Of a stretch of 64,000 nucleotides of DNA, positions 4,352 to 54,075 are shown one piece after another. Within the stretch, counting starts at the first letter, position 1, and every line of letters starts with the position of its first letter. The stretch covers positions 21,472-85,471 of the IMG/VR virus record IMGVR_UViG_3300015370_000516. One strand, written 5' to 3'. Under the pieces are notes generated by a model. The model did not search any database. It was given only the letters and a program-made list of their open reading frames with translations, and was not told the DNA's origin. The DNA is from a virus (Duplodnaviria > Caudoviricetes). Made by a program: the position numbers and the translations under genes.

Positions 4352-4352
4352 G

Positions 4353-23638: not shown

Positions 23639-26137
23639 ATGAGATGTACAGAATGTTCTCTATCCAAGACAGCAACACAGGAAGTAGAAGGCACTGGCCC
23701 CGTTAATACAGATACCCCAATTATGCTTATTGGGGAAGTTCCTGGAGAGGACGAGGATAAGCGGGGCGTTCCTTTTGTTGGTATAGCTGGTCAGCAAGTG
23801 CTGGATCCAATACTAAAGGCAGTTGGTCTGGATCGTAGAAAGATATGGATATTCAACGTATTGCGCTGCCGCCCGCAGAACAATAACATTGATTCTCCAG
23901 AAGCAAAAGATGGCTTAGGGATATGTCCTGGGCTATTTCTTTTTCCAGCTATAGAAGAACTCAGGCCCAAGATCATAGTTACTTTGGGTGCAATTTCCTC
24001 TAATCTACTTCTGGGCAGTAAGCGAGGTACTCGGCTGGCTGATTTACGGGGTCGCCCAGTTGAGAAATCCTTCGGGGAACACACCTGTTACGTAATGCCT
24101 TCCTATCACCCAGCATCGTTGTTACCAGGTCGTAATCCAGCTAACTATCAGATATTGCTTGAGGATATGCACCGAGCCGTTTCTTGGCTTAATGGTGCTC
24201 AGGTAGTAATTGCTGAGAAATATCGTACTTTAAAGTCGCGTACAATGGTTGATAAGTTTTTTGATTGGATGCATAATGGTGAAATGAATGATTTTATTTA
24301 TGACGTGGAAGCACAAGTATATGATGCTAACAGCAAACGCCCCAATATTTATAAGGACAAAATTCTGGGCATTAGTATTTCCTGGAGAGCTGGTCACGCT
24401 GTTTATCTTCCGTTACGTACCAGACCAGCTTTTAGTTATGAGTTGGAATCCTATTGGGGGGAGGATCAGGATTATGTAGTTGGTAGATTGAAAAAGGCTT
24501 TGGAAACTAATATAAGCAAAGGTGGGCAAAATGCTAAGTATGATAATATGATTTTAGAATGTGATTTAGGTATTAAGGTTTCTGGTTATAGTTTTGATAC
24601 TATGATTGCTTCTCATTTGCTTGATGAGAATCGAATGTCCCATGCCCTGGACGAACAGGTGCGTATTCATATACCAGAGAAATCGGGCTGGAAGGGCATG
24701 GCCCAGAAGGGAGACATGGCATCATTGTCTCTGGATACTATTGCGCAGTATTGTTGTTTAGACGCTGATTTAGAGCTTAGACTCAGAGACATTTATGCTG
24801 AACGTTTATGTAAGTACCCGCAATTTGAGCATCTATTTTATCATCATTGTATTCCTTACCAGCGCACTTTACAACGCATGGAATTAACCGGCGCACCGGT
24901 TGATGTATCAGCAGTTATCAAACTCAAAGCGGATTTGGAAGCTGAGATAACTAAAGCTGAAATCAGAATGCGTAAGGTTTTTGGAAGCACGGTTAATGTA
25001 GATTCCCCGACCGATGTTTATTTAGCGCTGAAGCAGAATGGCGTAGACGTAACGGCTTTAGAGGAAACCGATGATGATGATGTTCCTATTCTGGATGCTA
25101 AAGGGAATCCTAAGATAAGTACGAAAAAAGCTATGTTGGGTAGTTTATCGCAATCTTCGGGGTTGGTACAGTTGATTATGAATACCAGAGTGTTACAGAA
25201 AATGTTAAGTACCTATGTGATACCTATTGAGAGATTTCAGATAAACAATAGAATTCATGGATCATTTAAAATAACCGGAACGAAAACGGGGCGAATATCA
25301 AGTTCTGAACCCAATCTCCAAAACATCCCACGTGGTGGTGAACTTGATAATATAAGTCATGTTTGGGGCAAGCGGGTAAAGAGTGTTTATTGTGCTCAGG
25401 CTGGCTGGAAATTGATACAGGGCGATTTTTCACAAATGGAAGTTGGGGTATTGGCTGATTATTCCAGAGATGCAGCTCTGGTGGCTGCTTGTTCTACCGA
25501 AGATGTTCATTTTGCTGCAGCTTGTTCCTTATTTGGTTTGGATTTTAAAGAGGCGTATTCACGCTTTTTGCGGGGAGATCCATACTTGGCGAGTAGGCGG
25601 CAAATGATAAAGAGTATTGTATTTGGTCTTATTTACGGATCATCAGATGATTCTCTGGCAAAGTCTTATGGTCTTGACGTATCAGTGTTCAAAGATTTCC
25701 GGGCTAAATTCTTTCAGCGGTTTGGTGGGGTAGAGAAGTTTATTGGTAACACTCACCAGCAAATTGATGCTAATAAAGAAGTGATTTCCAAGTTTGGTCG
25801 GCATCGGAGAATACCCTACGCGGGACAAAAAGATAAATTGGGGAGAGCTCACCGGCAGGCGGTCAATAGTTTAATCCAAGGAACTGCCGCTGATATATGT
25901 GCCCAAGCTATCTATCGATTGGAAGATGAGTTAATAAAGTATAAGTACAGAGCCAGGCCAGTTTTAACAGTTCATGATTCTATTGTTACTGAAGTTCCTG
26001 ATGAGGAAGTGAACGAGGTTTGTGCTTTACAGCGTGAGATTATGCTGATGAAGCCGTTGCCGGATTTTAGCGTATCTTTGCGAGTCGATATTGAGGTAGG
26101 AGAACGCTGGAGTGAACTCAAGAAGGTGGGGGTATGA
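23639..26137 (+). CDS. polA: Family A DNA polymerase with N-terminal uracil-DNA-glycosylase (family 4-like) domain and 3'-5' exonuclease
   Basis: UDG: CTECSL...GEVPGEDED..G.PFVG...NVLRCRP...YHPA; exo: YDVE, NAKYD, YCCLDA; pol: TGRISSSEPNLQNIP, DFSQME, RQMIKSIVFGLIYG, TVHDS. Confidence 0.95.
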   Translation: MRCTECSLSKTATQEVEGTGPVNTDTPIMLIGEVPGEDEDKRGVPFVGIAGQQVLDPILKAVGLDRRKIWIFNVLRCRPQNNNIDSPEAKDGLGICPGLFLFPAIEELRPKIIVTLGAISSNLLLGSKRGTRLADLRGRPVEKSFGEHTCYVMPSYHPASLLPGRNPANYQILLEDMHRAVSWLNGAQVVIAEKYRTLKSRTMVDKFFDWMHNGEMNDFIYDVEAQVYDANSKRPNIYKDKILGISISWRAGHAVYLPLRTRPAFSYELESYWGEDQDYVVGRLKKALETNISKGGQNAKYDNMILECDLGIKVSGYSFDTMIASHLLDENRMSHALDEQVRIHIPEKSGWKGMAQKGDMASLSLDTIAQYCCLDADLELRLRDIYAERLCKYPQFEHLFYHHCIPYQRTLQRMELTGAPVDVSAVIKLKADLEAEITKAEIRMRKVFGSTVNVDSPTDVYLALKQNGVDVTALEETDDDDVPILDAKGNPKISTKKAMLGSLSQSSGLVQLIMNTRVLQKMLSTYVIPIERFQINNRIHGSFKITGTKTGRISSSEPNLQNIPRGGELDNISHVWGKRVKSVYCAQAGWKLIQGDFSQMEVGVLADYSRDAALVAACSTEDVHFAAACSLFGLDFKEAYSRFLRGDPYLASRRQMIKSIVFGLIYGSSDDSLAKSYGLDVSVFKDFRAKFFQRFGGVEKFIGNTHQQIDANKEVISKFGRHRRIPYAGQKDKLGRAHRQAVNSLIQGTAADICAQAIYRLEDELIKYKYRARPVLTVHDSIVTEVPDEEVNEVCALQREIMLMKPLPDFSVSLRVDIEVGERWSELKKVGV

Positions 26138-27186
26138 TATTTCCTAAAGACTATGAAAATAAAGTTATTTGTGGTGACTGTCTTAGTATTATGAAGGGGA
26201 TGCCGGATAAGTGCGTTAGTCTGGTGATTGCTGACCCGCCATATTATCGGATTGCTAACGAGAGTTGGGATAAGCAACATTCCAGCATTGCGGAATACAT
26301 AAAATGGCTTGAGCCTATCGCTATTGAATTAAAACGCTTACTTTGTGATCGTGGGAGTTTGTTTATCTTCGGTGATGATCGCAATATTGCCTATGTTCAA
26401 GTGCTATTTGATCAATATTTTGTCTTTTTGAATCATCTCGTTTGGCACAAAACAAACAATTTACCCCAGAAGAATGCTGCTAATCTGAAGTCTTTTCCAG
26501 TAATGAGTGAGCGTATTCTATACTATGGTCTTTATGGTGATAGAACTGGCTTACAATCTATCTATGAAAACCCAGATTGCTTTAATGCTATTAAGGCTTA
26601 TATGCGCCAAGAGAGAGATGCGCTTATGAAACATTTAGGACATAGTACGCTGGATCAATTCAACCAATATATCAATGATCTTACGGATACAAAAAGTGTA
26701 GTATCTCGTCATTATTTCTCTGACTCACAATGGGTATTCCCAACCGCTGAAATCTACGCTAAACTACAGACGGCGGGTTATTTTCAGCGTGAGTATAAAG
26801 GTTTTCAACGCGAGTATGAAAGTCTTAGACGCGAGTATGAAAGCCTTAGACGCGAGTATGAACCACAAAAAGGTATTCACGAAATTATTGCGCTGCCTAT
26901 TATATCAGGAAATGACAATACTGCACACCCGACAACTAAGCCGCTTGCACTTATGAAGATATTGATAAAGAGCGCCTCACGCGTTGGTGATTTAGTATTA
27001 GACCCGATGTGCGGCTCTGGCACAACCGCCGTTGCCGCGAAGCAACTCGGACGTCGTTTTATAGGAATTGAGATCAACCCCGACTATTGTAAAATTGCCA
27101 AAGATAGATTAGCCAATTTCATAGATGCAACAACAGAAGAACGTGCCCAAGCCGGACTTCCCATGAACTTTATGGATTTGCTATGA
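26134..27186 (+). CDS. Beta-class DNA amino-methyltransferase 1 (likely m6A)
   Basis: ADPPY, HPTTKP, VLDPMCGSGTT. Confidence 0.93.
   Translation: MIFPKDYENKVICGDCLSIMKGMPDKCVSLVIADPPYYRIANESWDKQHSSIAEYIKWLEPIAIELKRLLCDRGSLFIFGDDRNIAYVQVLFDQYFVFLNHLVWHKTNNLPQKNAANLKSFPVMSERILYYGLYGDRTGLQSIYENPDCFNAIKAYMRQERDALMKHLGHSTLDQFNQYINDLTDTKSVVSRHYFSDSQWVFPTAEIYAKLQTAGYFQREYKGFQREYESLRREYESLRREYEPQKGIHEIIALPIISGNDNTAHPTTKPLALMKILIKSASRVGDLVLDPMCGSGTTAVAAKQLGRRFIGIEINPDYCKIAKDRLANFIDATTEERAQAGLPMNFMDLL
26787..26862 (+). repeat. 21-bp in-frame tandem repeat (REYESLR heptads)
   Basis: acgcgagtatgaa at 26808, 26829 and 26850, plus a degenerate copy at 26787. Confidence 0.9.
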
Positions 27187-27995
27187 TTTGGGAACGAGAT
27201 TATATTGGTAAAGTTATTTGTGCTGATAGTTTGCAGGCACTAAGTTCTATACCAGAAAAGAGTATTGATCTTATTGTTACAGATCCTCCTTATGGTCATA
27301 ATAACAATGACGGTGATTTGATTGCTAATTGGGAAGCTGTTTTTGGTGGGGACAGAACTAAATCTAAGCCGCGTCCCATTGCCCAGGATGGGGTAGAGGC
27401 AAATGAACTTTATAAACAATTTCTGAAGGAAGCCTTTCGGGTTTTAAAGCCTGGCAGTTGTTGTTGTTGTTGTGGTGGTGGTGGTGGGCCAGACCCACAG
27501 TTTGCTCGGTGGTCTTTGTGGATGGATGAGGTGTTTCAATTTAAGCACATGGTTGTATGGGACAAAGGAGGGATGGGCCTAGGCCATCATTATCGGCGTA
27601 GTTATGAGACTATTCTGGTGGGGCAAAAGCCTGGGGCAGCTTGTAAATGGTATGATAAGTCCAAGAGGATTGAAAACGTAATCCGACCAGGTATGTACGG
27701 AATTCATAAAATAATACCCAATGAAAATCAGCATCCTACTGAGAAACCAGTAGAATTGATGCAATTTTTTATTGAGTTACATTCAACGGGGAATGACATT
27801 GTTCTCGATCCTTTTTGCGGTCATGGATCAACTCTGCTGGCTGCCAGAAAACTGGGAAGGCGGTTTATAGGCATAGACGTAGATGCTGGCTTTTGTGAGA
27901 TAAGCAGGAAAAAATTGGCAGAATTACATGGAGCTACAACAGAGGAACGTGCCGCCGCTGGGTTGCCAATGACTTTCTTGGACACACTTACATAA
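27183..27995 (+). CDS. Beta-class DNA amino-methyltransferase 2
   Basis: TDPPY, HPTEKP, VLDPFCGHGST. Confidence 0.93.
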   Translation: MIWERDYIGKVICADSLQALSSIPEKSIDLIVTDPPYGHNNNDGDLIANWEAVFGGDRTKSKPRPIAQDGVEANELYKQFLKEAFRVLKPGSCCCCCGGGGGPDPQFARWSLWMDEVFQFKHMVVWDKGGMGLGHHYRRSYETILVGQKPGAACKWYDKSKRIENVIRPGMYGIHKIIPNENQHPTEKPVELMQFFIELHSTGNDIVLDPFCGHGSTLLAARKLGRRFIGIDVDAGFCEISRKKLAELHGATTEERAAAGLPMTFLDTLT

Positions 27996-28014
27996 AAAAT
28001 TTAATAGATAGTAT

Positions 28015-28043
28015 TTGTAATATACAAGTAAAAGTATTATATT
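28015..28043 (+). promoter_or_regulatory. Sigma70-like promoter of the recombination operon
   Basis: TTGTAA-N17-TATATT upstream of recA. Confidence 0.7.
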
Positions 28044-28065
28044 ACCATAAAGCGATGATACTGAG

Positions 28066-29346
28066 GTGTTTGTGGCGGATCATAAACCATTAGTTGAAGC
28101 CTTCACCAAGAAATTCAATGCTCAGGTGGTTGTACCTTGGGACGGCAGCGCCCAGCAGGTAGACATAGGTCCTACACGCGTGACGCTGGCCAGTAACGTC
28201 AGGCAGGTACTGCCGGGCAGTGACTTTCTGATTCGTCTGAAGTCTATCCCAGAGATTATGAAACGGGATGTGTGGGATATTCCCGCACTAAGGAGTTCTG
28301 GTTTAATAGAGCCACAAGTTTCCAGAACCGTTCCTGTTGGGGCGTATAGACCTATGGGCAAGAAGCCAAAGATTATTTACCCCACCGGTATTCTTAGCGT
28401 TGACTTGGCATTGAGCGGTGGATTTATGGGTAGTATTCTATCACGTATTTGGGGAGCTTCCACCGGTGGTAAATCCGTTATTCTGTACATGGCGATGATT
28501 ACTGCTTGGCAGTTGTACGGAAAGAAAAGTTTGCTGATAAACCCTGAGTTTGACTTTGACGAAGATCGCTTTTCAGTTTTGCCAGGTGGCAAGACTATGC
28601 TGGAAAGCGAAGGGCTTTTAGTGTACGATCCGGGGGCAAGTGCCGATGCTTATGATAAAGTTATTGATTTAGTCGGAAGTGCCGCGTATGCTATTATTGG
28701 GTTTGATAGTCTAACTCCCCTAAAGTCAGAATCTGAACTATCTAAATCATTCAGTGATGAACCGCGCGTGGCTGACAAGGCCAAGGCACAGACTCGGTTT
28801 TTGGAAGACGTTTTGCCTCATTTATATCATAAAAGTAAATCTGCTCTTATTATGATTGTACAGTCCAGAAAACGATTGGGTGATACTCGTAGTGGAATGA
28901 TGTCTCAGTTCGATGAAGTTAGTGGTAGCTACGGAGCTTCTGGAGATAAACCTGCATCTGGGGATGCCCTGCAATTTTACACACAGCAGTCTCTAAAAGT
29001 CTTTCCCCCTACTAAGCTGGTCTACGAAAAGGGAACACGTAATATTCTCGGACATCAGATAACTGGTCTGGTTGACAAGAACAAACGAGCGCCACAGGGA
29101 ACTCGCTTTGGGTTTTACATTGATTACCGTACCGGGTTGGACTTGGATCTTCAGATTGTTAATGCTGCTATTGAGGCTGGGATCATAGAACTTAGAAAGC
29201 AGAAGCATGTGGTTCAATTAGATGGGCAAGAGCAGATATTTGATTCCGGGCGGGAATGCCGATTAGCTCTATCGGCAGATCGAGAATTGCGCAAGGCAGT
29301 CTATTTGGGGGTACTAAAGCACGTGAATCCAGATTTCAGGATTTAG
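28066..29346 (+). CDS. recA: RecA/UvsX-like recombinase with N-terminal extension
   Basis: TGILSVDLALSGG, Walker A GASTGGKS, IGFDSL, SGDALQFY, VDKNK. Confidence 0.92.
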   Translation: MFVADHKPLVEAFTKKFNAQVVVPWDGSAQQVDIGPTRVTLASNVRQVLPGSDFLIRLKSIPEIMKRDVWDIPALRSSGLIEPQVSRTVPVGAYRPMGKKPKIIYPTGILSVDLALSGGFMGSILSRIWGASTGGKSVILYMAMITAWQLYGKKSLLINPEFDFDEDRFSVLPGGKTMLESEGLLVYDPGASADAYDKVIDLVGSAAYAIIGFDSLTPLKSESELSKSFSDEPRVADKAKAQTRFLEDVLPHLYHKSKSALIMIVQSRKRLGDTRSGMMSQFDEVSGSYGASGDKPASGDALQFYTQQSLKVFPPTKLVYEKGTRNILGHQITGLVDKNKRAPQGTRFGFYIDYRTGLDLDLQIVNAAIEAGIIELRKQKHVVQLDGQEQIFDSGRECRLALSADRELRKAVYLGVLKHVNPDFRI

Positions 29347-29361
29347 AAGAGGGACTATAAC

Positions 29362-29679
29362 ATGGTAACAAGAATTACTGGCGTAAGCGTCTCCTCTAAG
29401 ATGGCTTGCATGTACAGCAAAGAAGAAATAATCACCTTTGAAGTACAAGCTAATGCCGTCTTTGCAGAAATCAACGAAGAGCCAATTGACGGGGGTTGGG
29501 TCAAGGCTGAAATCCAAAGGCTTTTCAATGAAGTAGTTGATCCAGCTATCCGAGAGGAGTATAGGGCGTATGGTCAAAAGAATGAACTATTTCGTTTAAC
29601 TGCTCAAGTAGTCAGACCACAGGCTATCAAACATTACAAATTGTTACTGGAGAGGCAGAATTCAAGTACCCACGATTGA
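29362..29679 (+). CDS. Hypothetical protein; C-terminal residues (SSTHD) encoded by the IS relic
   Basis: 105 aa ORF ending inside the 46-bp element. Confidence 0.6.
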   Translation: MVTRITGVSVSSKMACMYSKEEIITFEVQANAVFAEINEEPIDGGWVKAEIQRLFNEVVDPAIREEYRAYGQKNELFRLTAQVVRPQAIKHYKLLLERQNSSTHD

Positions 29680-29706
29680 AGTCATGGGTTTCCTGTCACA
29701 AGAATC
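29661..29706 (-). mobile_element. 46-bp collapsed IS200/IS605 relic (right end fused to left end)
   Basis: First 20 nt identical to 52123-52142; last 26 nt match 53318-53343 with 1 mismatch. Confidence 0.9.
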
Positions 29707-30300
29707 ATGAAAATTACTAAATCAACGGTTGCTGGTCCTGTATCTCGGTTGCTTGGTAACCCGGAGCTTGTTCCAATACCATATATAGGATACCGAAGTC
29801 TCGAAGAAATAAGTTCATCCCTTGAAGATGTTCAGTTGCCTGATTTCAGTCAGATGCACTCTGAACTTGTGAGAATTGGAGATGTTACAATTTCTGATGA
29901 TCCTACCGCGATGGGGCTAAAGGAATTTAATGCAAATCTTGCTAAGGCTGCCGAGGGTTACAGGAAATTGACGGTCTACCGTGCTGAGTGTATTGCCATT
30001 CGATCGGAGTGGGCGAGTTTGAAGATTGATTTTAATCGGTTATTGGATCAGATGAAAAGAGATGGTATGAAAACCGCTGGGTACGAGGTCTGCAAGAACG
30101 TTCAAGATAGAACAGCTTATCTGGATAATTTCGTTTCCGACTATAATTTGGAAATGGCTGTGGTTGAGCAGGCATTACAGAGATGTGCAGACTTTGTGGA
30201 AGTGTGCCGCGTCTTAGGAAAGGGACTGGATGCTCTATTATTGGTATTAAGTAAACAAGTAGAAATCCTAAAAATACAAGCAAAAGTAGAAGGAGTCTAA
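29707..30300 (+). CDS. Helical hypothetical protein (possible recombination mediator)
   Basis: 197 aa helical pattern between recA and the SSB-like gene; function is inference only. Confidence 0.45.
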   Translation: MKITKSTVAGPVSRLLGNPELVPIPYIGYRSLEEISSSLEDVQLPDFSQMHSELVRIGDVTISDDPTAMGLKEFNANLAKAAEGYRKLTVYRAECIAIRSEWASLKIDFNRLLDQMKRDGMKTAGYEVCKNVQDRTAYLDNFVSDYNLEMAVVEQALQRCADFVEVCRVLGKGLDALLLVLSKQVEILKIQAKVEGV

Positions 30301-30301
30301 C

Positions 30302-35297: not shown

Positions 35298-36952
35298 GCC
35301 TGGAACGTAATAAAATATACGCGATGCATGCACTGGACGGACTCAGGGAGATGCCGGATGAGAGTGTACAACTGTGTTTTACCAGCCCGCCATATTTTAA
35401 CTTAAGAGACTACAAATCAGAGCCACAGATTTGGGATGGAGATTCATCGTGTCATCATGTTTGGAGGGGGGTGATTAGCCCAAGACCAAATCAAACTGGA
35501 GGGGTGGGATATAGATCGGCAACGCAATTAGCAAATAGAGGTTCTCACTGTGTAGAATATAATAATCGTGTTAGTTTAAGTAATGTCTGTTCTCTCTGTG
35601 GTGCATGGAGAGGAGAACTTGGTCAGGAACATACGGTAGAGTTGTATGTTAAGCATCTTAAGGATATTTTTCATGAAGTACATCGAGTTTTGCGTAGAGA
35701 CGGGATTTTTTATTTGAATCTGTCTGATAGCTACGCTACCCATGCAAGCAACCGAGCTGGTCAATTTGGCAAGGAAATTAAGGAAGGATTCGATGATGTT
35801 TTTACTCGTTCCAAACCCCCAGCCAGTCAAATGGGGCTTAAAGAAAAAGACCTTTGTGGTATTCCCTGGCGCGTTGCCTTCGCATTACAAGGATTCGCTG
35901 TCATTCCAGGCAAGGAACTTAACCGAGCTGCTGACCTGCTGAAGATCGCCAGAGAAACCCGAGACTGGGAGATGGTAACTGCAGTTGAGGGAATGCTACG
36001 TGGTTGGTCATTCCTATCTGAAATACTTGATCCTTATTGGCTGCGGTCTGACATTATCTGGTCAAAGAGAAATTGTATGCCATCCAGTGCTACGGATAGA
36101 CCTACAACTTCGCATGAGTACATTTTTATGCTTACCAAAAGCGGAACTACTCAATTCTGGACACATCGTGATTTGAATGGAGTCAGGAAACAGCCAAAGC
36201 CTGATTATCGTTGGATACATGAAACAACTGGAGAAGAGGTGTCAGTTAAACCGATTGGCTGGACTCCTCAGAATAAAATGGGGTGGATTAGAGTCAATCT
36301 CTGGGAGGGACATGATTATCTTTATGATGCTGTGGCTGCGCGAGAGAGATCAATAACGGATCCAAATAGTAAATCCTCTATGACATTTGGGGCAAAACAT
36401 GGAAAATATAATACTATCGAATTGGCACATGCCGCCAATCTTGGGCATAAATGGGTATACGAATCAACTCGCAATCTTCGTTCCGTTTGGACGCTTAGTA
36501 TTAAGCCCAGACCCGAAAATCATTTTGCCTCTTTTCCAGACGAACTTTGTAGCTTAGTTATCGAAGCTGGGAGCAGTCACAAGGCTTGTTCTAAATGCAG
36601 AGCGGCGTGGATGAGAGTGGTGGGAAAAAATGAGAGTGATTGGGAAGAAAGGAAAAGACGGGGGGAACCTAATCGGGCAGGTCTTGCTGGTGCTGCACAA
36701 ATTGGGTCTGGTAATTATAAAAATCGGGAACCCAAAACTCTCGGTTTCCGTCCGTCTTGTGATTGCGAGAACGATGGCTCCGGTCGTTGTCTGGTTCTTG
36801 ATCCTTTCATGGGGCGTGGTACGGTTGCCGACGTGGCTCGCAAATTAGGCCGTGATTTCATTGGCTTTGACTTAAATCCTGAATATGTAAAGATGGCATA
36901 CGATAATTTAGGATCGAAGACGTTTCTGGAACTATTAGATGGCATCGATTAA
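35294..36952 (+). CDS. Beta-class DNA amino-methyltransferase 3 (SPPY, likely m4C) with large insertions
   Basis: TSPPYF, HFASFP, VLDPFMGRGT; extra CxxC pairs. Confidence 0.9.
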   Translation: MSLERNKIYAMHALDGLREMPDESVQLCFTSPPYFNLRDYKSEPQIWDGDSSCHHVWRGVISPRPNQTGGVGYRSATQLANRGSHCVEYNNRVSLSNVCSLCGAWRGELGQEHTVELYVKHLKDIFHEVHRVLRRDGIFYLNLSDSYATHASNRAGQFGKEIKEGFDDVFTRSKPPASQMGLKEKDLCGIPWRVAFALQGFAVIPGKELNRAADLLKIARETRDWEMVTAVEGMLRGWSFLSEILDPYWLRSDIIWSKRNCMPSSATDRPTTSHEYIFMLTKSGTTQFWTHRDLNGVRKQPKPDYRWIHETTGEEVSVKPIGWTPQNKMGWIRVNLWEGHDYLYDAVAARERSITDPNSKSSMTFGAKHGKYNTIELAHAANLGHKWVYESTRNLRSVWTLSIKPRPENHFASFPDELCSLVIEAGSSHKACSKCRAAWMRVVGKNESDWEERKRRGEPNRAGLAGAAQIGSGNYKNREPKTLGFRPSCDCENDGSGRCLVLDPFMGRGTVADVARKLGRDFIGFDLNPEYVKMAYDNLGSKTFLELLDGID

Positions 36953-38948: not shown

Positions 38949-38978
38949 CAACTTGGCTTGGTTCATTTTGCACCTGAA

Positions 38979-38993
38979 TTTACTATAACCTAA
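38979..38993 (+). promoter_or_regulatory. TTTACTATAAYCTAA motif, candidate phage promoter
   Basis: Same 15-mer at 54899 and 63390, always intergenic. Confidence 0.6.
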
Positions 38994-38997
38994 AAGA

Positions 38998-43500: not shown

Positions 43501-43986
43501 ATTCTGCGGGAGATCGAGGATTCTGGGAAAGCCAGGCCATCAAACATGCAGCTTGATTTGATGGTGGACGAGTTAAGAGAAGATCAGCGAGGTAATATCG
43601 CTCTGTACGAGTTGCCCAACGGAGATGCTTTAGTTTCAGGGTTTTCTTTCTATGCTGATGATCCTCATTGGTTTGTAGTTCGTGAACAGGCTAAGAAGCA
43701 GTGGGAGACTTTGACAGAAATTCAGAAAAGCACTGTGCAGCAGCTTTATGATTATAAAATTGTTGAGAGTAAGTCTACCATAGACATGGACGGGGTAGAA
43801 ATCATTGGCGGTACGTCCGGTGGTTTTCCCAAAGGCTTTATCACCCCGGCAGCCAGTCAGGACGTTCTTAACTACTTTGTGGAATCAAGTTTTCTCTATC
43901 AGGAAGATTCCTATAAACTGGAATTCCTGGATCCTCCAATGTATCAATTCTTGCGTGATGAGATATTTATCAAGGAGTATCGTTGA
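40552..43986 (+). CDS. Portal protein fused to a MuF (SPP1 gp7-like) minor head domain and a degenerate zincin-like C-terminal domain
   Basis: Portal-like NAIDIHSQLP, WCLFGEV-like and GTPLLLGILKDL segments; Pro-rich linker; MuF RIVRTET...RTCGYCRALDG...HPQCR; C-terminal NYFVESSFLY...DPPMYQFL. Confidence 0.75.
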   Translation: MPLIKTNLGEEFKRARTGAESGQLQNVIAAPMPLMVRGGPGKAASMSRTAVDVEKLSPLIRDPRLSPDNFYLPYYDPTSGEPSAILNEWISYYYRYQPLVGNAIDIHSQLPISRFGLTGVQDPAIMRVYEETAEDLNLIENMYYFLHCWFLFGEVMPYFWWSEKYNRFVHMTFIDTSKVRVLGHYLSFSDEGDSTFRYELMPDDCLRHLVNSSDSYDREIIRNLDPVIVSAVRRGMNLELDNFSTELIASTSNPWEIRGTPLLLGILKDLVYGDTLRMAQTAVAQRLITPIWLWKLGTPGPDGYMPTDSDLQAFRETLIAANEDPSFTIVSHYAVTAEVIGAAGKILPITNELTWVDKRIMTRLFTNEAITTGQGPTFATASIALRALMSRYLPIRAMMERVFKRKVFLPIALANGFLDKDGNPIIPDFNWRHKQSLLDDSSIRSSLLELRRNGEMPLKVIADSMDLDYEEMLMWLEKEQGTIVDRPLYQARTTFVANAVAQAKEGFKGLLEVVKSTFLRSSQEETVKEDDKGKSVPDGYDADQNATLPQPGTSDNLGAPNVPKGDSPRAKPPQKPKDPTGPTQAPVGGETGERVLGRSFLRDKQIQRARKPSNYQPFVVKQSQRTSEQQVEPINDWQERLLTSPMDRSCQDSVLGAENHILNVYTQMGDDFARRLVDTWKSKGNVSLSDFEHAVRDSISQVNDQSATDFRDRLVYLYEKSQAAVTEQLKRSGRGRRYLGRRAALQDDRQRNMEDALDGAFSRVTTVSSEVLDKLRDMLHANQESIPADVVSTLFAELDMAGVENLSEADLIAKFKEIWDKQRYIYQRIVRTETINMYSHASLMEWHDAGYKRVTRREINDFRTCGYCRALDGLDFDLNKLLELDYPLIQNPDTKAYDGHPQCRGYFLPSLSIDDWDEFVLPPGANFDNVEDISIGNTQVTGAPVGIADAITEALQENDIQKSVSIVPDVVDTPAWLDSERQRILREIEDSGKARPSNMQLDLMVDELREDQRGNIALYELPNGDALVSGFSFYADDPHWFVVREQAKKQWETLTEIQKSTVQQLYDYKIVESKSTIDMDGVEIIGGTSGGFPKGFITPAASQDVLNYFVESSFLYQEDSYKLEFLDPPMYQFLRDEIFIKEYR

Positions 43987-44339
43987 TGCTGTGGCAATTT
44001 GCCGTTCTAAACGAGGGTGAACGTGAAGCCCCGCTGGGCATTGTTGTTCACCAGATTGGCCATGTCCCCAAATGGATTACTACCAACAAGCAAGCCGAAA
44101 CGGTTTTTGGGGTATTGTTTAATCGTGATACGGTTTATGCTAATGTCTTGGGTCCTGGCGGGTCTTACTCCAGAGTAAAAAAGACTTATAGCGATGCAGA
44201 CTATTTGGATTATGCAAGTACCAAAGTGAGTCTGCCAACGTACATACAAATACGAGGAAGTTGGAACACGGAAGTATCAGATTTAGATCAAGTACTGAAA
44301 CAGTTGAGCGTTAAATTTCTCGGAGACGATCATGTCTAA
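43983..44339 (+). CDS. Small hypothetical protein downstream of the portal-MuF fusion
   Basis: 118 aa, overlapping stop/start. Confidence 0.6.
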   Translation: MMLWQFAVLNEGEREAPLGIVVHQIGHVPKWITTNKQAETVFGVLFNRDTVYANVLGPGGSYSRVKKTYSDADYLDYASTKVSLPTYIQIRGSWNTEVSDLDQVLKQLSVKFLGDDHV

Positions 44340-45174: not shown

Positions 45175-45185
45175 TAAAAAAGTGC

Positions 45186-45214
45186 TTGTATTTTTAATAG
45201 GAATTGGCTAAATT
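45186..45214 (+). promoter_or_regulatory. Sigma70-like promoter of the glycosylation cluster
   Basis: TTGTAT-N17-TAAATT. Confidence 0.65.
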
Positions 45215-45242
45215 AACTTGAGAGGATACTGAGGAGACATTT

Positions 45243-46025: not shown

Positions 46026-46047
46026 CCCACTGACCAGAAGGATTTCG

Positions 46048-46839: not shown

Positions 46840-47779
46840 AAAAATCCTTTTTTGTGCCCCCAGATTCGATTACGGCTTGCCTGAGTTGGGAGCTTCTCCG
46901 GAGGAGTTGCACATGGTACATACTCTTCTGGACATGGGTGTGCAGGTGGAACGCTTTGACTTCCGCAAGCTTATTCAGGAGTTGGGTTCTCCTCAAATTG
47001 TAAATGAGGCGCTAAGGACTGAATTAGACAATGACTACGATGCTGTCTTTTACGTTCCTTTTGAGGGATGGGAAATTAGTGATGAAACCTGGGTTTTTGG
47101 AACTGACGTTATTAAAATTATTTGGTTGTTTAATGATGCTTGGCGTTACCCCCAGCTTGGCAAAGAGAAGTGTTGGAGTTTTAACGTAGTTGTCTCGGAT
47201 GACCCCAGAGCAGTTGATAAATATAAAAGTATTTCTTATGACGGTAAAGTTGTGTATTTGCCAAGAGCTTGTCGGACTGGCTGGCTTTCTGGGGCTGCCC
47301 CAGAAGATGTCCGACTCTACGATCTAACTTTTATAGGCAGTCCTTATGGGCAGCGTACCCAAATTGCCACAGCCATCAAAGAGCTTCTGCCAGACTTAAA
47401 CATTTTTATTGGGCATGTTGATGGTCGTAAACTACCTTGGGAAGAATATATTAGGGTGCTACGTTCAACTAAAATAGGGCTTAGTCTGGGCATGGCCTCC
47501 GGGGGTACGGAAATGCAGATAAAAATGCGGGACTTCGAGATCTCTGCCTCCGGGGCTATGTTGTTATCAAATAATCCTGGCTTAGAGGAAGTCTACGATC
47601 TTGGTGTAGAGGCAATACTCTTTGGGCAAGCAGAGGACATCTTGACTAAGGTGCGGTATTTTCTGGATCATCCGGACGATAGGATTAAGGTAGCAACGGC
47701 TGGGCAGTCAAGAACGTTAGCTGAGCATGATTATACAAATAGGTTCACAACTTTGTTTTCTTTACTTGGAAATTCTTGA
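46826..47779 (+). CDS. CgeB-like GT-B glycosyltransferase
   Basis: WLFNDAWR, DLTFIGSPYGQR, KMRDFEISASGAMLL, EHDYTNR. Confidence 0.85.
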   Translation: MPHFRKILFCAPRFDYGLPELGASPEELHMVHTLLDMGVQVERFDFRKLIQELGSPQIVNEALRTELDNDYDAVFYVPFEGWEISDETWVFGTDVIKIIWLFNDAWRYPQLGKEKCWSFNVVVSDDPRAVDKYKSISYDGKVVYLPRACRTGWLSGAAPEDVRLYDLTFIGSPYGQRTQIATAIKELLPDLNIFIGHVDGRKLPWEEYIRVLRSTKIGLSLGMASGGTEMQIKMRDFEISASGAMLLSNNPGLEEVYDLGVEAILFGQAEDILTKVRYFLDHPDDRIKVATAGQSRTLAEHDYTNRFTTLFSLLGNS

Positions 47780-48591
47780 TGTACAATTTGAATGAAATAG
47801 TTAATAAAGTGCATTGTGCTGATTGTCTTGAATTCTTACGAGATATGCCAAGTGCTTGTATTCCTTTGATAGTGACCAGTCCGCCTTATTTTGCATTTCA
47901 AGAATATGAGAATTTGGTGGGGTATGCTGATTACCCAGCTTTTATGCAAGGACTCTTAGATCGATTCAGGGAATGTTGTCGGGTTCTGATTCCTGGTGGA
48001 AGGTTGGTCATAAATATTGATGATAAACATGGGGGGATTACAACGCATAAAGAATCTTGTTGCTATCCTACGCATGCATCTCTTATTCAGGGTATTTTGA
48101 GCAGCAATGATATAATTTATAAAGGTAATATTTTTTGGGATAAGGGCGCACGTGGGGGACATGCTACCGGAGGAGCATCTCACATGTTGGGTAGTTATCC
48201 ATATCCTTCTGAAATTCCTATTATAACGAATTATGAGTATATTTTGGTATTCAAAAAGCTGGGCAAACGTGTGATTGTTGACAAGAGCACATCTCGTTTG
48301 ACTTATGATGATTTCAAAACTGCAATAGGAATTTGGAAGATAGCTGCTGAGAAAAAGAGAGATGATCACCCCTGTCCGTTTCCAATAGAAATACCTGGTC
48401 GAATTATAAAGCTATTCTCTTTTGTCGGCGATGTTGTGCTTGATCCTTTTATTGGTTCTGGTACAACAGCGTTGGCTGCGCGTAAACTGGATCGTAAATT
48501 CTTGGGCATTGATCTTAGTCCTGAATACTGTGCTTTTGCCCAAGAACGAGTTGCGAGTCTTCCTAAGACTTTCTTGGACTTGCTAAAATGA
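47776..48591 (+). CDS. Beta-class DNA amino-methyltransferase 4 (SPPY, likely m4C)
   Basis: TSPPYF, HPCPFP, VLDPFIGSGTT. Confidence 0.93.
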   Translation: MMYNLNEIVNKVHCADCLEFLRDMPSACIPLIVTSPPYFAFQEYENLVGYADYPAFMQGLLDRFRECCRVLIPGGRLVINIDDKHGGITTHKESCCYPTHASLIQGILSSNDIIYKGNIFWDKGARGGHATGGASHMLGSYPYPSEIPIITNYEYILVFKKLGKRVIVDKSTSRLTYDDFKTAIGIWKIAAEKKRDDHPCPFPIEIPGRIIKLFSFVGDVVLDPFIGSGTTALAARKLDRKFLGIDLSPEYCAFAQERVASLPKTFLDLLK

Positions 48592-49367
48592 AAAATCCGA
48601 GTATAAACATTGGACCCACCGCGGCTCCGATAGTTTCAATCCTGATGCCGGTGTATAATGCAGAAAAGTATCTGCATCAGTCCGTTGCCTCGATCTTAGA
48701 ACAAAAGGGCGTGTCTAAGTTTGAGGTGATCATCATTGATGATGGCTCCACCGATAAATCGTTTGACATCCTGCAGGAGATGGGTGACGAGCGTTTTTTA
48801 ATCCTGCGCCAACGTGAAAACAAGGGCATAGTTCGTTCTCTTAATATTGGCATGCTCCGCACCACTGCTCCGTTAATTGCCCGCATGGATGCAGATGATG
48901 TAATGCACCCAGAGCGGTTGATAAAGCAAATTAACTTCATGCGACAGAATCCTTTTTTGACAGCTTGTGGGACTTATTTCGATTATATTAACGAGGATAG
49001 TAGGGTTACTGGGGCAGCTATGCAATTTCCTATTCAACCACCTGATGTCAGAGAGGCGTTTAAGAAGTTTACGGCTATAGGTCATCCTACTGCGATGTTT
49101 AGGAAGGACTTCTTGTTCAAATTGGCTCCGGATTTATACTCTTCTAAGTACCCGTATTGCGCTGAGGATTTGGGGTTGTGGCTTAAGTTGTTGTCCAGAA
49201 AAGCGCTTCTGGCAAATCTCGGAGAAGTACTTTTACATTATAGAGTACATTCCGGTCAAACGGGGGCAAAGGTACGTGGAAGAGAAAAGGAACAGGTAGC
49301 ATTGGTCTATCAAGATTGGGCGCATTTGGTGTGGCCTGCAAAAGAAGAGATTGAGGTGCAAGCATGA
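48588..49367 (+). CDS. Glycosyltransferase family 2
   Basis: SILMPVYN, IIDDGSTD, ARMDADD, CAEDLGLW, YRVH. Confidence 0.93.
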   Translation: MKNPSINIGPTAAPIVSILMPVYNAEKYLHQSVASILEQKGVSKFEVIIIDDGSTDKSFDILQEMGDERFLILRQRENKGIVRSLNIGMLRTTAPLIARMDADDVMHPERLIKQINFMRQNPFLTACGTYFDYINEDSRVTGAAMQFPIQPPDVREAFKKFTAIGHPTAMFRKDFLFKLAPDLYSSKYPYCAEDLGLWLKLLSRKALLANLGEVLLHYRVHSGQTGAKVRGREKEQVALVYQDWAHLVWPAKEEIEVQA

Positions 49368-50143
49368 GCCTATATCACGACCATTATGATTTAATCCATT
49401 CTCAGAAGGACTACTCCGCTGAGGTGGAAACGATTGTACAGGCTTACAGGCAAACCGCTAATACTAAATTTTTGGGTCGGGTGCTGGACGTGGGATGTGG
49501 AACAGGCAATCATAGCCTGGAATTGGCTAAGCAGGCTGCCGGAGTCCTTGGAATAGATACTGACCCCCCTATGGTGGAGAAAGCCCAGCAGAAGGCATCG
49601 TGTGGGGCTGGAAAGGCTAAATTCCTTTATACATCTGTCCAAGAGCTAATGGATTTTGGATTCGATCTGACAATTTCCATGTTTAACGTGGTAAATTACA
49701 TTGAAACGCTTCCTGAGTTGTTGTCTTTCTTTGCAGCTATCTACAGGCGCTTGAATCATAATGGGGTATTCGTTTTTGATGTCTGGAACGGAACAGCAGT
49801 TTTAAGAGATCCTCCTAAAAAGGAAGAACGCAACATTCAGGTGGGGGGTATAACGGTTACAAGAAAGACAATAATTCAGAAAATTGATCCTATTGTGGTA
49901 GGTGACACAATTCATATAAATAATCATTGTAATGTTCTTCAGTTACCAGCCGCTGCTGGTGGGCAATATGTAGTAGACACAAACTTTGACTATGTTACAA
50001 TCATGCGGCTATGGTCAAAAACGATCTTGGAAGAAGTGGCATTGATTGCCGGATTCACTACGGAGTTTTTCAAATGGTATGATTTGACTGTTCCAGCCGA
50101 CCACGACACCTGGAAACTTCTGGGTGTATGCCACAAGAAATAG
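49364..50143 (+). CDS. Class I SAM methyltransferase resembling amino-sugar N-methyltransferases (TylM1/DesVI-like)
   Basis: YDLIHSQKDYSAEV, VLDVGCGTG, FDLTISMFNVVNY, LNHNGVFVFD. Confidence 0.75.
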   Translation: MSLYHDHYDLIHSQKDYSAEVETIVQAYRQTANTKFLGRVLDVGCGTGNHSLELAKQAAGVLGIDTDPPMVEKAQQKASCGAGKAKFLYTSVQELMDFGFDLTISMFNVVNYIETLPELLSFFAAIYRRLNHNGVFVFDVWNGTAVLRDPPKKEERNIQVGGITVTRKTIIQKIDPIVVGDTIHINNHCNVLQLPAAAGGQYVVDTNFDYVTIMRLWSKTILEEVALIAGFTTEFFKWYDLTVPADHDTWKLLGVCHKK

Positions 50144-50156
50144 AAGAGAAACTATA

Positions 50157-51254
50157 ATGAAAGTCCCACACATGATCCCCCTTATCGGGGAAGAAGAATA
50201 TGTTCAGATCAAGGATTGCTTGGATTCCAAATGGTTATCCGAGGGTACTAAAGCTGACCAGTTTTTACGTATCTTTAAAAAGCTCACAGGGGCTAAGTAT
50301 GCAGTTCTTGCACCTAACGGTACTTTGGCTCTTTATATGGCGCTGAAGGCTGTTGGGGTGGGGGAAGGTGACTATGTTATGGTTCCGGATAGCACTTTCA
50401 TGGGGTCTGCTACCGCTGTAGTTCTTGCCGGAGCTACTCCGGTTTTTGTGGATGTGAACTTGGATTCTTGGCAACTTGACTTTGTTGCGTGTAAAAGTCT
50501 TAAATATGATCATAGCATTAGGGCAATAATGCCGGTACATCTGTGTGGCCATTCTGTGGATATGCCTACATTTATGGAAATGATGGGTGGGTATGCTCCG
50601 GTAATTATAGAAGATGCCTGCCAAACGGTTGGCGTTACCTTTGCTGGTAAGCACACCGGTACATTTGGCAAGGTGGGGGCTTTTAGTTTCTACAGTGATA
50701 AGTCATTTACTATGGGGGAGGGTGGGGCTGTAATTACTGATGATCCGGAGGTATATGCTAAGCTGAGATACTTACGGTGTCTGGGGAGACTCAGCAAGGG
50801 CAGCTACGTGCATGTGGAAAATGGATTCAACTTTTACATTACTGATTTGCAAGCTGCCATAGGTATAGCTCAGTTGGAGAGGATCAATAAGATAAAAAGT
50901 CGTAAAATGGTTTTGTATCAGCATTATAGAGCAAACCTGCTTGACTTAGCCGCTGCTGAAAAAATACATTTTCCGGTTATTCCTAAAGAATCATCGCTCA
51001 TACCATTTCGTATGTTTATACGTACAGAGGCGTTGGCCGATGATTTGATCAAATATCTGGCCAGTAAAGAAATAGGTGCTCGTGGGTTTTACTACCCACT
51101 GCACCGGCAGCCTTGTTTTTCTCATCTAATGGATTCGAGAAAGTTTCCCAACGCGGATTTGCTTTATCATCATGCTCTGCTGCTTCCGCTCTATCCTGAC
51201 TTGACCGAAGAGCAGGTAGATTATGTATGTGCCGCGCTAAAGGAATATTTTTAA
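50157..51254 (+). CDS. DegT/DnrJ/EryC1/StrS PLP sugar aminotransferase
   Basis: NGTLAL, AIMPVHLCG, IEDACQ, FSFYSDKSFTMGEGG. Confidence 0.93.
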   Translation: MKVPHMIPLIGEEEYVQIKDCLDSKWLSEGTKADQFLRIFKKLTGAKYAVLAPNGTLALYMALKAVGVGEGDYVMVPDSTFMGSATAVVLAGATPVFVDVNLDSWQLDFVACKSLKYDHSIRAIMPVHLCGHSVDMPTFMEMMGGYAPVIIEDACQTVGVTFAGKHTGTFGKVGAFSFYSDKSFTMGEGGAVITDDPEVYAKLRYLRCLGRLSKGSYVHVENGFNFYITDLQAAIGIAQLERINKIKSRKMVLYQHYRANLLDLAAAEKIHFPVIPKESSLIPFRMFIRTEALADDLIKYLASKEIGARGFYYPLHRQPCFSHLMDSRKFPNADLLYHHALLLPLYPDLTEEQVDYVCAALKEYF

Positions 51255-52141
51255 TGAAAAACAGGGTTTATACTGCCGAAGAATTGGTCCAGCTTTTACG
51301 CCAAAAATATAGTAGTCCAGACCGTTATGTGGTACTTGAACAGGTTGCTGATAGTACTGGGATAGGTTGGCATTCTTGGATTGATGCTGTTGTCTTGTGG
51401 CTTTGGCCTTCGGATGGTATAAAGCGTGCTGCTTTTGAGGTTAAAGTATCCAGGCAGGATTGGCTGCATGAAATTCAGCGCATTAACAAGAATGCTTGGG
51501 CTCGTGAGTACTTTCATGAGTTTTGGTTTCTTGCTCCTGATTTTGTAATTCAGATTGAGGAATTGCCCGAAGGTTCCGGGTGGATGAAACCGGTTGGATC
51601 GGGTCTTCGCATTATGCGTGCCGCATCACGTAAGGACAATCCGGCTTGTGACGATGCATTGATTTCGTCTTTGGCAAGATCTATGCAAAAGTACATCGCC
51701 AAGTCTGGGAAAGAGGCTTATAGATCAGCAAAGGAAGACGATATTGACTACAGCTCTGCCAAGAAATGGGAAGAGGTTGGCCGGGCTTTTCTACAGAGCC
51801 ATGGTATAATGAATGTGTATACGGTGGAAGTTTCTGACTTTGAACGTGCCAGTGGGGATGCCGGGACTCGAAGGACTGCGGAACAGATGCAAGATGTTCT
51901 GATTGGCCTACGTAGTAAAATGCAGAATTCCTTAGCGCATCATATAGCGATGGCCTATTTAGCACTTGATGCCACAGACGAAGCCGGTCAGTATCTTCTA
52001 AATATGTGGAATTTGGGGGTTGAAGCACGTGGCGATGTTGCCGCTTCGCTTGTTAAACAAAAAGAACTAATTCTAATACAAGTGCAAGATATTTTAAAAA
52101 GTCTTAAACTTAGCAGTCAATTTTCAAGTACCCACGATTGA
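51254..52141 (+). CDS. MmcB-like PD-(D/E)xK protein; C-terminal residues (SSTHD) encoded by the IS end
   Basis: WIDAVVL...AFEVKVSRQDWLHE...EFWFLAP...ELPEGSG. Confidence 0.7.
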   Translation: MKNRVYTAEELVQLLRQKYSSPDRYVVLEQVADSTGIGWHSWIDAVVLWLWPSDGIKRAAFEVKVSRQDWLHEIQRINKNAWAREYFHEFWFLAPDFVIQIEELPEGSGWMKPVGSGLRIMRAASRKDNPACDDALISSLARSMQKYIAKSGKEAYRSAKEDDIDYSSAKKWEEVGRAFLQSHGIMNVYTVEVSDFERASGDAGTRRTAEQMQDVLIGLRSKMQNSLAHHIAMAYLALDATDEAGQYLLNMWNLGVEARGDVAASLVKQKELILIQVQDILKSLKLSSQFSSTHD

Positions 52142-53236
52142 AATCGTGGGATTGTAAGTCATCGTTAGTTTGATGCCTACGATAGGTTGCTTGAAATCAA
52201 CCCGTTTAGAAATAACTTTAGCAGCATTAAGGTCAGCATTTTCAGAATGTCCACAACTACAGCAAACAAATTCAGCTTGATTTTTCCGGTTAGCTTTGTC
52301 TGTATAGCTGCAGCAAGAACATTCTCTTGATGTGTTTCTTGGATCAACCAGAACGACAGGGATGCCGTCTCTTAATGCTTTGTAGCTCAGAAATGTTCTT
52401 AATTGAAAGAATGCCCAACTACTGTGTTTAGCTCGTTCCGATTTCCTTACCGTGACTCTTGTTCGGATGCCTTTGAGGTCTTCAAGAGCGAATCCTTGTT
52501 GAGTGTCTTTAGCTTTCTGAACGAGTTTCTTGGAAACGCAATGGTTTACATCTGTTCTGAATCGAGATTCATTTCGTCTGATTTTTTTAAGGTGACGTTT
52601 AGCCGATTTGGTTCCTTTGGCTTGGAGATTGGCTCTGAGATTAGAGTATCGTTGTCGTACTTGTTCGACTTGCTTACCGGAGAACGATTCTCCTGTACTA
52701 TCGGTAGCGATGTTGATTATGCCAAGGTCAATGCCAATGAATCCGGTAGGTACTATTGGTGGTATTTCGGTAGTTTCAACGGTAGCCAGCAGGTAGAAGA
52801 TGCTATCTACGAGAACTAAATCAGCTTGTCCTCGTGCATGTTTCATTCTTTCAAGTTGGTAGCCGGAAAGAATCATGGGAATGGTTTGACGACCGACAAG
52901 AGTCCAGAGGCTAACGGATTCCAAGCCTTTGAATCGCATGATTCGACTATCATAGATAACAGCCCCAAGTGGCTTAAACTGGAGTTGAACTCGTTTCTTA
53001 CGCCCGGCATCGCAAACTTTACCTATAGCGCGAGCAGCCATTTGAGCAGAAAGTTCAAATTTAGATTTAACATTATAATATACAATTTTATGAAGGTTGA
53101 ATGCAGACCAGTTATTTTCATTGAAAGCAACTTCAGCAATGTAATTACAAGCAGCATTAAATTGTATCATCGTCTGCTTGAGAATCTCATGCTGTTCAGC
53201 AGACGGGCAAAGTTTTATTTTGAGTGTAGTCTTCAT
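52124..53236 (-). CDS. tnpB: TnpB RNA-guided nuclease, catalytic residues intact
   Basis: GIDLG, ALEDL, CSCC/CCSC zinc finger, ADLNAA. Confidence 0.95.
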   Translation of the reverse strand: MKTTLKIKLCPSAEQHEILKQTMIQFNAACNYIAEVAFNENNWSAFNLHKIVYYNVKSKFELSAQMAARAIGKVCDAGRKKRVQLQFKPLGAVIYDSRIMRFKGLESVSLWTLVGRQTIPMILSGYQLERMKHARGQADLVLVDSIFYLLATVETTEIPPIVPTGFIGIDLGIINIATDSTGESFSGKQVEQVRQRYSNLRANLQAKGTKSAKRHLKKIRRNESRFRTDVNHCVSKKLVQKAKDTQQGFALEDLKGIRTRVTVRKSERAKHSSWAFFQLRTFLSYKALRDGIPVVLVDPRNTSRECSCCSYTDKANRKNQAEFVCCSCGHSENADLNAAKVISKRVDFKQPIVGIKLTMTYNPTISIVGT

Positions 53237-53248
53237 ATTTTTATGACC

Positions 53249-53277
53249 AATATACTCATAAGATTTGAAGAAGTCAA
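53249..53277 (-). promoter_or_regulatory. tnpB2 promoter
   Basis: TTGACT-N17-TATATT on the minus strand. Confidence 0.65.
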
Positions 53278-53343
53278 GTACTATTTAACTGGAGGTGGCA
53301 TTCCTCCCACGACTGAAGTCATGGGTTTCCTGCCACAAGAATC

Positions 53344-54075
53344 ATGAATCCAGAAGTACAAGCTGTTCTTGATGGTCAAAGTAGTGGTTGTGTGGTTTGT
53401 GGTGATTGTCTTAGCATCATGCACGAGATGCCCGATAATTCCGTTGATTTGCTATTGACCGATCCTCCATACGGGATTGGTGTAAACAATATGGGACTTG
53501 GGCTTGGTGGGGGTCTTTATCGTAAAATTGACCGCCGGGGTGGGGCATGGGATGACCAAAGGATTACCACAGAATGTCTAAACGAAATGATCAGAATATC
53601 CAAGAATCAAATTATTTGGGGTGGTAACTACTACGCTGATTTACTTGCACCATCGCGGGGGTGGTTGGTATGGGATAAACGGCTGGATCAATTGCCAGAC
53701 GATTATGGAGATTGTGAGTTAGCATGGACTTCTTTGGATAAAGTGGCAAGGATTTTTCGCTATTTATGGCGCGGGTTTCAACAGGGTGATATGAAACATA
53801 AGGAAGTTAAGTTTCATCCGACCCAAAAGCCTGTTTCTTTAATGAAGTGGTGTTTAGGATTTGGTAATGAATCTGATCTTATCCTCGACCCTTTTCTTGG
53901 TTCTGGTACCACGGCAGTAGCAGCCAAACTATTAGGACGTCGTTTTATAGGAATTGAAATCAATCCTGATTATTGTAAAATTGCCAGTGATAGGTTATCT
54001 CAATTTGCAGATGCAACAGTAGAAGAACGCATCTGTGCTGGGTTGCCGCTAAACTTTATGGACTTGTTGGGGTAG
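53344..54075 (+). CDS. Beta-class DNA amino-methyltransferase 5, paralog of MTase 1
   Basis: TDPPY, HPTQKP, ILDPFLGSGTT. Confidence 0.93.
   Translation: MNPEVQAVLDGQSSGCVVCGDCLSIMHEMPDNSVDLLLTDPPYGIGVNNMGLGLGGGLYRKIDRRGGAWDDQRITTECLNEMIRISKNQIIWGGNYYADLLAPSRGWLVWDKRLDQLPDDYGDCELAWTSLDKVARIFRYLWRGFQQGDMKHKEVKFHPTQKPVSLMKWCLGFGNESDLILDPFLGSGTTAVAAKLLGRRFIGIEINPDYCKIASDRLSQFADATVEERICAGLPLNFMDLLG

Follow-up and report, generated by a model that had tools for sequence, protein, structure and literature searches.

All five DNA methyltransferases encoded by the phage IMGVR_UViG_3300015370_000516 end in the same short peptide, [TN]F[LM][DE][LT]L, placed zero to four residues from the stop codon, and we propose that this tail is a docking peptide for a sliding clamp that couples methylation to replication. 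The window analysed here is the last 64 kb of this 85,471-base virus record, and coordinates refer to the window unless another genome is named. Resting as it does on comparison of sequences, the proposal, with the phage's own clamp as the likelier partner, has in our judgement about an even chance of being right. The phage clamp is preferred on two grounds: the five tails share one and the same departure from the canonical bacterial clamp-binding motif, and the phage carries an orphan clamp of its own.

A common tail on divergent methyltransferases

The C-termini read GLPMNFMDLL in M26134, GLPMTFLDTLT in M27183, SKTFLELLDGID in M35294, LPKTFLDLLK in M47776 and GLPLNFMDLLG in M53344, exactly as given in an earlier, sequence-only reading of this DNA that had pointed to the shared tail. 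When the whole genome is translated in six frames the pattern appears five times, every time at one of these C-termini; mononucleotide shuffles yield 0.055 matches on average and never more than 2. Codons within the tail vary at synonymous sites (TTT/TTC, GAT/GAC/GAA, TTG/CTA/CTT/TTA); the likeness is therefore not a product of recent gene conversion, and it is the peptide that has been conserved. The linker ATxEERxxAG, also remarked upon earlier, is seen in the alignment of three of the five enzymes, and the linkers that lead to the tail are 0, 2 or 15 residues long.

All five enzymes belong to the N6_N4_Mtase family (PF01555, E 1e-46 to 7e-25), and in each of them motif IV, (D/S)PPY, lies N-terminal to motif I, FxGxG, which is the beta-class order of N6-adenine and N4-cytosine methyltransferases. 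Three have DPPY and two SPPY, and all lie on the forward strand. The beta-class DPPY enzyme M26134 (26134..27186, 350 residues) matches the family at E 1.2e-46 with the domain ending at residue 323, and carries NFMDLL at 27166-27183 behind the linker ATTEERAQAGLP. It is followed by M27183 (27183..27995, 270 residues), likewise beta-class and DPPY (E 1.8e-34, domain end at residue 242), with TFLDTL at 27972-27989 and then a single threonine and the stop. The SPPY enzymes are M35294 (35294..36952, 552 residues, E 5e-35), which has large inserts and in which TFLELL (36920-36937) precedes DGID and the stop, and M47776 (47776..48591, 270/271 residues, E 8.6e-37, domain end at residue 257), which lies within a glycosyltransferase cluster and closes with TFLDLL (48568-48585), a lysine and the stop. 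M53344 (53344..54075, 243 residues, DPPY, E 7e-25) has the linker ATVEERICAGLP and ends in NFMDLL (54052-54069), a glycine and the stop. No further open reading frame (ORF) of at least 150 residues in the whole genome contains a (D/S/N)PP(Y/F/W/H) motif, and these five are therefore the complete set of N6/N4 DNA methyltransferases of the phage, in agreement with the earlier count. The methyltransferase at 49364-50143 is of the class-I small-molecule type, belongs to the glycan cluster and has no tail.

Outside the tail the enzymes are as divergent as had been supposed, with overall identities of 26-44%. Foreign metagenomic proteins match the body of M27183 at 62-65% identity, in alignments that end at residue 247, as against only 30-52% for its paralogues in the phage, and the closest foreign homologue of M47776, at 50% identity, does not have this tail. 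Over its C-terminal 86 residues M53344 is 71% identical to M26134; in their N-terminal parts the two differ. By these comparisons the enzyme bodies belong to separate lineages, which either acquired the tail or retained it.

The tail is appended to the conserved catalytic fold and lies outside it, a placement that the sequence-only reading had anticipated. The PF01555 domain ends 14-29 residues ahead of the stop. An AlphaFold2 model of M27183 built from 91 aligned sequences has a predicted local distance difference test (pLDDT) value of 86.8, and its best solved matches, at Z 23-26, align only to about residue 247-256 of 270. Those at Z 26 are 8S9N (a rotifer N4-cytosine enzyme), 6PBD (CcrM) and 1G60 (M.MboIIA), and the other solved beta-class matches are M.BceJIV, TTHA0409, M1.HpyAVI and M.RsrI.

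Two of the enzymes have further peculiarities. In M26134 an insert between motif I and the target-recognition region contains the peptide REYESLR about three times in tandem. M35294 is double the usual size, its inserts include a Cys-rich stretch, and its end overlaps by 14 bases the start of a large-terminase-like gene (36939).

Clamp-binding motifs in homologous enzymes

What the tail may be is suggested by what stands in its place in related enzymes. None of the 119 best foreign homologues of M27183 carries an F[LM]DLL tail; 47 of them (39%) have Qxx[LMIV][FLWYM] within their last 15 residues, compared with 3.4% for windows taken from inside these proteins and 4.4% for shuffled tails. Examples include QEELF, QLSLF, QGDLF, QPDLF, QLNMF, QMSLL and AGQMPLF. 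The glutamine lies 3-22 residues past the last helix's conserved arginine, and the motif is trailed by a median of 2 residues. Placed on a variable linker at the extreme C-terminus, this peptide behaves as a short linear docking motif, and it matches the published beta-clamp-binding pattern Q-phi-x-L-F / QL[S/D]LF (bioRxiv 10.64898/2026.05.27.728225). The tendency is also present, though weaker, among representatives akin to M47776 (AQGIL, SQEVLNF, SQLSPMF). The methyltransferases of the cultured Gram-positive phages Emery, FP_Mushu, MMB025 and SEP9 have no clamp-like tails, and that of mycobacteriophage Leozinho ends QMCLDFREGA; a clamp-like tail is thus common, not universal, in this enzyme group.

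A further connection is provided by the linker. In 10 homologues there is a foreign module, TGVPVKEARAG-QxxLF, to which ATxEERxxAG-LPxxF can be aligned column for column, and it follows that the three long tails descend from a tail that bore a clamp motif. In the course of this descent the motif appears to have been remodelled, the glutamine giving way to leucine and the leucine of position 4 to threonine or asparagine, with the phenylalanine retained and [LM]D[LT]L appended. Read instead from the phenylalanine, F-[LM]-[DE]-L-L fits positions 2-5 of QLDLF, with the terminal phenylalanine changed to leucine and no glutamine. The tails resemble clamp-binding motifs in their terminal position outside a folded domain and in that the equivalent position of homologues carries such a motif; they do not match the canonical Q-phi-x-L-F or Q-phi-x-L-x-L, of which only positions 2-4 fit. 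The PIP-box (PCNA-interacting peptide) pattern Qxx[LIM]xx[FY][FY] is absent from all five tails. The idea of the sequence-only reading that the tail is a clamp-docking motif has gained strong comparative support from the homologues; the tail itself is not a canonical motif.

Peptides of a similar kind were noticed elsewhere in the genome. A 118-residue ORF just downstream of the portal-MuF fusion (43983-44339) ends ...QLSVKFLGDDHV; six residues short of its C-terminus stands Q-L-x-V-x-F, close to the canonical clamp-binding hexapeptide. The genome's only other match to a loosened form of the tail pattern is RIFLELLG at residue 352 of a DnaB-like helicase (15966-17348), which we rejected as part of the system, RIFLELL being inside the RecA-like domain and probably a buried helix. 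The tail TTLFSLLGNS of a glycosyltransferase (PF13524, 46826-47779) lies inside its Pfam domain and was likewise rejected, as a chance resemblance.

A divergent beta-type clamp as candidate partner

The proposed docking partner is the 385-residue product of ORF 20946 (20946..22103, forward strand), which by family match and predicted structure is a very divergent beta-type sliding clamp. It matches phrog_947 ('DNA polymerase processivity factor') at E 2.1e-17 over residues 3-335. Its ESM Atlas model has a predicted template-modelling (TM) score of 0.80 and features at 0.96 to beta-clamp clusters, and reaches a TM score of 0.83 over 356 residues to a viral DnaN cluster with PF00712, PF02767 and PF02768; the predicted structure has the three-domain fold of beta clamps. 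Its pLDDT is 90 in ESMFold2 and 34 in AlphaFold2, the latter run on the single sequence as there was no alignment for the clamp. Directly upstream, at 19458..20924 on the same strand, lies a DnaX-like clamp loader of 488 residues (PF13177, E 3.3e-29; PF22608; phrog_5846, E 2.7e-62), and the earlier assertion that the phage encodes both a beta-like clamp and DnaX is thus borne out. The clamp itself has no match in Pfam and none by sequence in the PDB. It has no sequence relatives in a collection of 5.8 billion proteins, in pattern scans of IMG/VR or in 50,697 phage records (tblastn, E up to 5), nor did a direct search find any in Pseudanabaena phage Pan1 or Nodularia phage 2AV2.

Canonical peptides bind a hydrophobic cleft that lies between domains II and III of the clamp. 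Structure prediction of the tail with ORF 20946 had been put forward as a check, and we ran ESMFold2 on the clamp together with a 45-residue tail given as an alignment of the five tails. The complex scored 0.54, 0.54 and 0.51, as opposed to 0.00 for each of three controls, with at least 64% of contacts in common between runs and a partner pLDDT of at least 52. The prediction stands above its controls and is graded by the tool as 'weak support'. Of 80 solved complexes 58 attain the mark, as do 2 of 110 mismatched pairs; the passes with scores of 0.60 or below comprise only 7 of these solved complexes, along with the two mismatches. It may also be that the pass reflects memory of solved complexes between beta clamps and peptides.

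Taken together, we envisage that the hydrophobic and acidic tail at the extreme C-terminus, joined to the enzyme by a short linker, would act as a short linear docking peptide, tethering each methyltransferase to the ring-shaped sliding clamp left on newly made DNA, such that the phage genome would be methylated at several target sequences during replication. The most likely partner would be the phage's own divergent beta-type clamp, loaded by the phage DnaX, and in this lineage a private variant without glutamine would have arisen by remodelling of the ancestral QxxLF. We infer that the tails bind, which clamp they bind and what purpose this serves, namely a protection from restriction that is coupled to replication; host DNA may in addition be spared, as the sequence-only reading had suggested.

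It is tempting to go further and to speculate that the phage uses a private clamp code, in which an orphan clamp with a changed pocket and the exchange of QxxLF for F[LM]DLL in all five enzymes would let these enzymes ride on the phage clamp only, confining methylation to replicating phage DNA and keeping host clamp clients off the phage clamp. We regard this extension as possible though doubtful. It can be compared with other phages. From IMG/VR we took 80 loci that hold related methyltransferases; the 40 longest of the records were examined for clamps (PF00712, phrog_947), and 4 of the 40 encode a phrog_947 clamp. A parallel to the present tails is offered by the 216-kb genome G012 (IMG/VR_UViG_3300028914_000054), which has two phrog_947 clamp genes and, at its positions 48370-90327, seven methyltransferase ORFs in tandem pairs that all end LTGPF[HR][LI][FY]GN[IL]G. 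The 90-kb genome at locus L019 (G005, IMG/VR_UViG_3300036937_000041) has at 767-5702 an operon composed of a phrog_947 clamp, an ORF, a PF01555 methyltransferase and PolA; its two methyltransferases end SLDPLL and VKGLL, and its PolA ends ...HSLDQV. Such clamp-bearing phages look compatible with private tails, the cases being few and the seven paralogues of G012 non-independent.

Alternative explanations

Several observations weigh against docking on the phage clamp. The support from complex prediction is weak and comes without a contact listing. There is no glutamine in any tail, and by the homology alignment positions 1 and 4 of the motif are both lost; positions 1, 4 and 5 weigh most for binding to the Escherichia coli clamp (bioRxiv 10.64898/2026.05.27.728225). 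With the 40-residue tail region as a query, the collection of 5.8 billion proteins returned solely the protein itself, and the exact tail has no second occurrence there. The polymerase, DnaX, primase, recombinase and nuclease genes all lack the motif, the polymerase ending ...SELKKVGV, and only two of the five methyltransferase genes belong to the replication module, the other three being next to the terminase or in the midst of glycosyltransferase genes. Finally, residues 251-270 of M27183 have a pLDDT of about 80 in the AlphaFold2 model and form two short helices (253-258 and 265-268), and judging by this model the tail may pack on the enzyme body.

The alternative that survives best, although we consider it fairly unlikely, retains the clamp and changes its owner: the tails would dock on the beta clamp of the host, and their odd motif would reflect an unusual host pocket or relaxed requirements. 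In at least 90%-complete phage genomes in which neither PF00712 nor phrog_947 detected a clamp, the related methyltransferases nonetheless bear clamp-type tails (QLQLF in L080, QLPMF in L087, GLF in L035 and KDMF in L077; also PTLF). A phage clamp is therefore unnecessary for the general phenomenon, and the host clamp appears from these sequences to be the default partner in this enzyme group. The absence of a tail from the phage polymerase is in line with this alternative, as is the agreement of the core [LM]-[DE]-L-L with positions 2-5 of QLDLF save for the change of phenylalanine to leucine. For this particular phage, however, the glutamine that is important for canonical binding is missing from all five tails, a clamp and its loader are encoded in the genome itself, and nothing points to an unusual motif in the host.

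We also judge it unlikely that the tail is an intramolecular or oligomerisation element, an amphipathic helix lying on the body or on a dimer partner and serving stability, autoinhibition or the formation of heteromers among the five. The two helices predicted at a pLDDT of about 80 in M27183 are what such an element might look like, but solved beta-class folds stop before the tail, close homologues (62-65% identity) lack it and have a floating QxxLF instead, and linkers of 0, 2 or 15 residues on bodies 26-44% identical are hard to reconcile with a specific packing site.

It seems quite improbable that the tail is instead a tag for some other partner or fate, such as another replisome protein, targeting to the capsid, or degradation that times methyltransferase activity. 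In other systems short peptides at the C-terminus mark proteins as cargo or for degradation, and a role of this kind would suit the three methyltransferase genes whose neighbours are packaging and glycosyltransferase genes, not replication genes. Yet no other protein of the phage has the tag, the homologous position in relatives holds clamp motifs, and the prediction with the clamp lies above all controls.

That the tail is a functionless, neutral remnant of common descent or module shuffling, as the 71%-identical C-terminal module shared by M26134 and M53344 might suggest, is very improbable given amino acids conserved despite synonymous divergence, a tail on SPPY enzymes whose nearest relatives are without it, and none on the non-DNA class-I methyltransferase.

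Relation to known clamp clients

Clamp-binding peptides are well known in bacteria, where the clients include Pol II, Pol IV, PolC, DnaE, MutS, Hda and Pol I and the motif takes the pentapeptide form Q-phi-x-L-F / QL[S/D]LF or the hexapeptide form Q-phi-x-L-x-L (bioRxiv 10.64898/2026.05.27.728225; PMC5397184). The phage tails resemble these motifs in being short, hydrophobic, acidic at the third position, terminal and outside the fold; their candidate partner is of beta type, and at the equivalent site homologues of the enzymes have the canonical form. They differ in lacking the glutamine of position 1 and in ending Leu-Leu rather than Leu-Phe. The clients here, moreover, are DNA methyltransferases, and the proposed clamp is a phage-encoded orphan.

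Among phages, the T4 family offers a parallel in gp43, gp33 and gp55, which bind gp45 through C-terminal epitopes, the polymerase among them (PMC2988020). There too the clamp is phage-encoded, and a hydrophobic and acidic C-terminal epitope on a divergent linker of variable length serves several client proteins that are unrelated. However, gp45 is trimeric and PCNA-like as opposed to the beta-like clamp of 385 residues here, and the T4 clients are the polymerase and transcription factors, not methyltransferases, whereas the polymerase of the present phage has no epitope; the combination that marks the T4 type, a gp45/PCNA-type trimeric clamp with a polymerase that shares the epitope, is thus not found. 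MuC of phage Mu, which binds the host beta clamp via a clamp-binding motif (PMC12867686), is like the present enzymes (on prediction) a non-polymerase phage protein with such a motif, but it is a transcription activator, uses the host clamp and has a well-defined canonical motif.

The closest likeness in function is to DNMT1, whose PIP box mediates replication-coupled maintenance methylation on PCNA (PMC9690074). As proposed here for the phage, a DNA methyltransferase is tethered to the replication clamp and new DNA is methylated behind the fork. DNMT1, though, is a C5 enzyme of eukaryotes whose PIP box is N-terminal and whose clamp is PCNA, as against five beta-class N6-adenine/N4-cytosine enzymes with a C-terminal motif and a beta-type clamp, and the likeness is one of functional analogy, not of homology.

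Already known, therefore, are clamp-binding peptides as such, the coupling of DNMT1 to PCNA and a phage transcription factor on the host clamp; in the literature that we searched, no DNA methyltransferase of a bacterium or a phage is reported as a client of the beta clamp. The enrichment of clamp-binding motifs in homologous methyltransferases (39% vs about 4%) suggests that the phenomenon is widespread, though unrecorded in that literature, and in this phage a non-canonical motif goes together with an orphan clamp of beta type. Should the tails bind a clamp, replication-coupled DNA methylation would be no speciality of eukaryotes and would also be a common phage strategy, one that would explain how each new copy of the genome is methylated at many sites before host restriction enzymes act. 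DNA methyltransferases would then join the clients of bacterial-type clamps, and a private pair of clamp and peptide would amount to a natural orthogonal tethering system.

Source of the phage and context of its replication genes

The phage record recurs nearly unchanged in groundwater and aquatic metagenomes from 11 studies (2017-2025). Very few positions vary across four groundwater/aquatic runs, and with the population almost clonal the variant data are consequently uninformative on selection for the tail. A DnaX scan of IMG/VR returned no relatives of the phage, all tblastn matches to DnaX being at 38% identity or below, and a search with TnpB for the host gave matches of just 32-37%, to a Chloroflexia metagenome-assembled genome and an archaeal one.

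The DNA polymerase (23639..26137, forward strand, 832 residues) is a fusion that consists, in order, of an N-terminal uracil-DNA glycosylase superfamily domain (PF03167, E 7e-21), a 3'-5' exonuclease and PolA (PF00476, E 3e-80). A reverse-strand TnpB gene is inserted between it and the clamp. The polymerase stop overlaps the start of M26134 (ATGA), as the stop of M26134 does that of M27183 (ATGA), so that these two methyltransferases are translationally coupled to the polymerase, in a module that also holds DnaX and the clamp. At the other side of this module, directly upstream of the DnaX-like gene, lies an ORF of 117 residues (19103-19456) without a family match, which could be a small clamp-loader subunit. 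Six residues before its end it has HLDKLL, loosely resembling the tails of this phage and the SLDPLL of G005.

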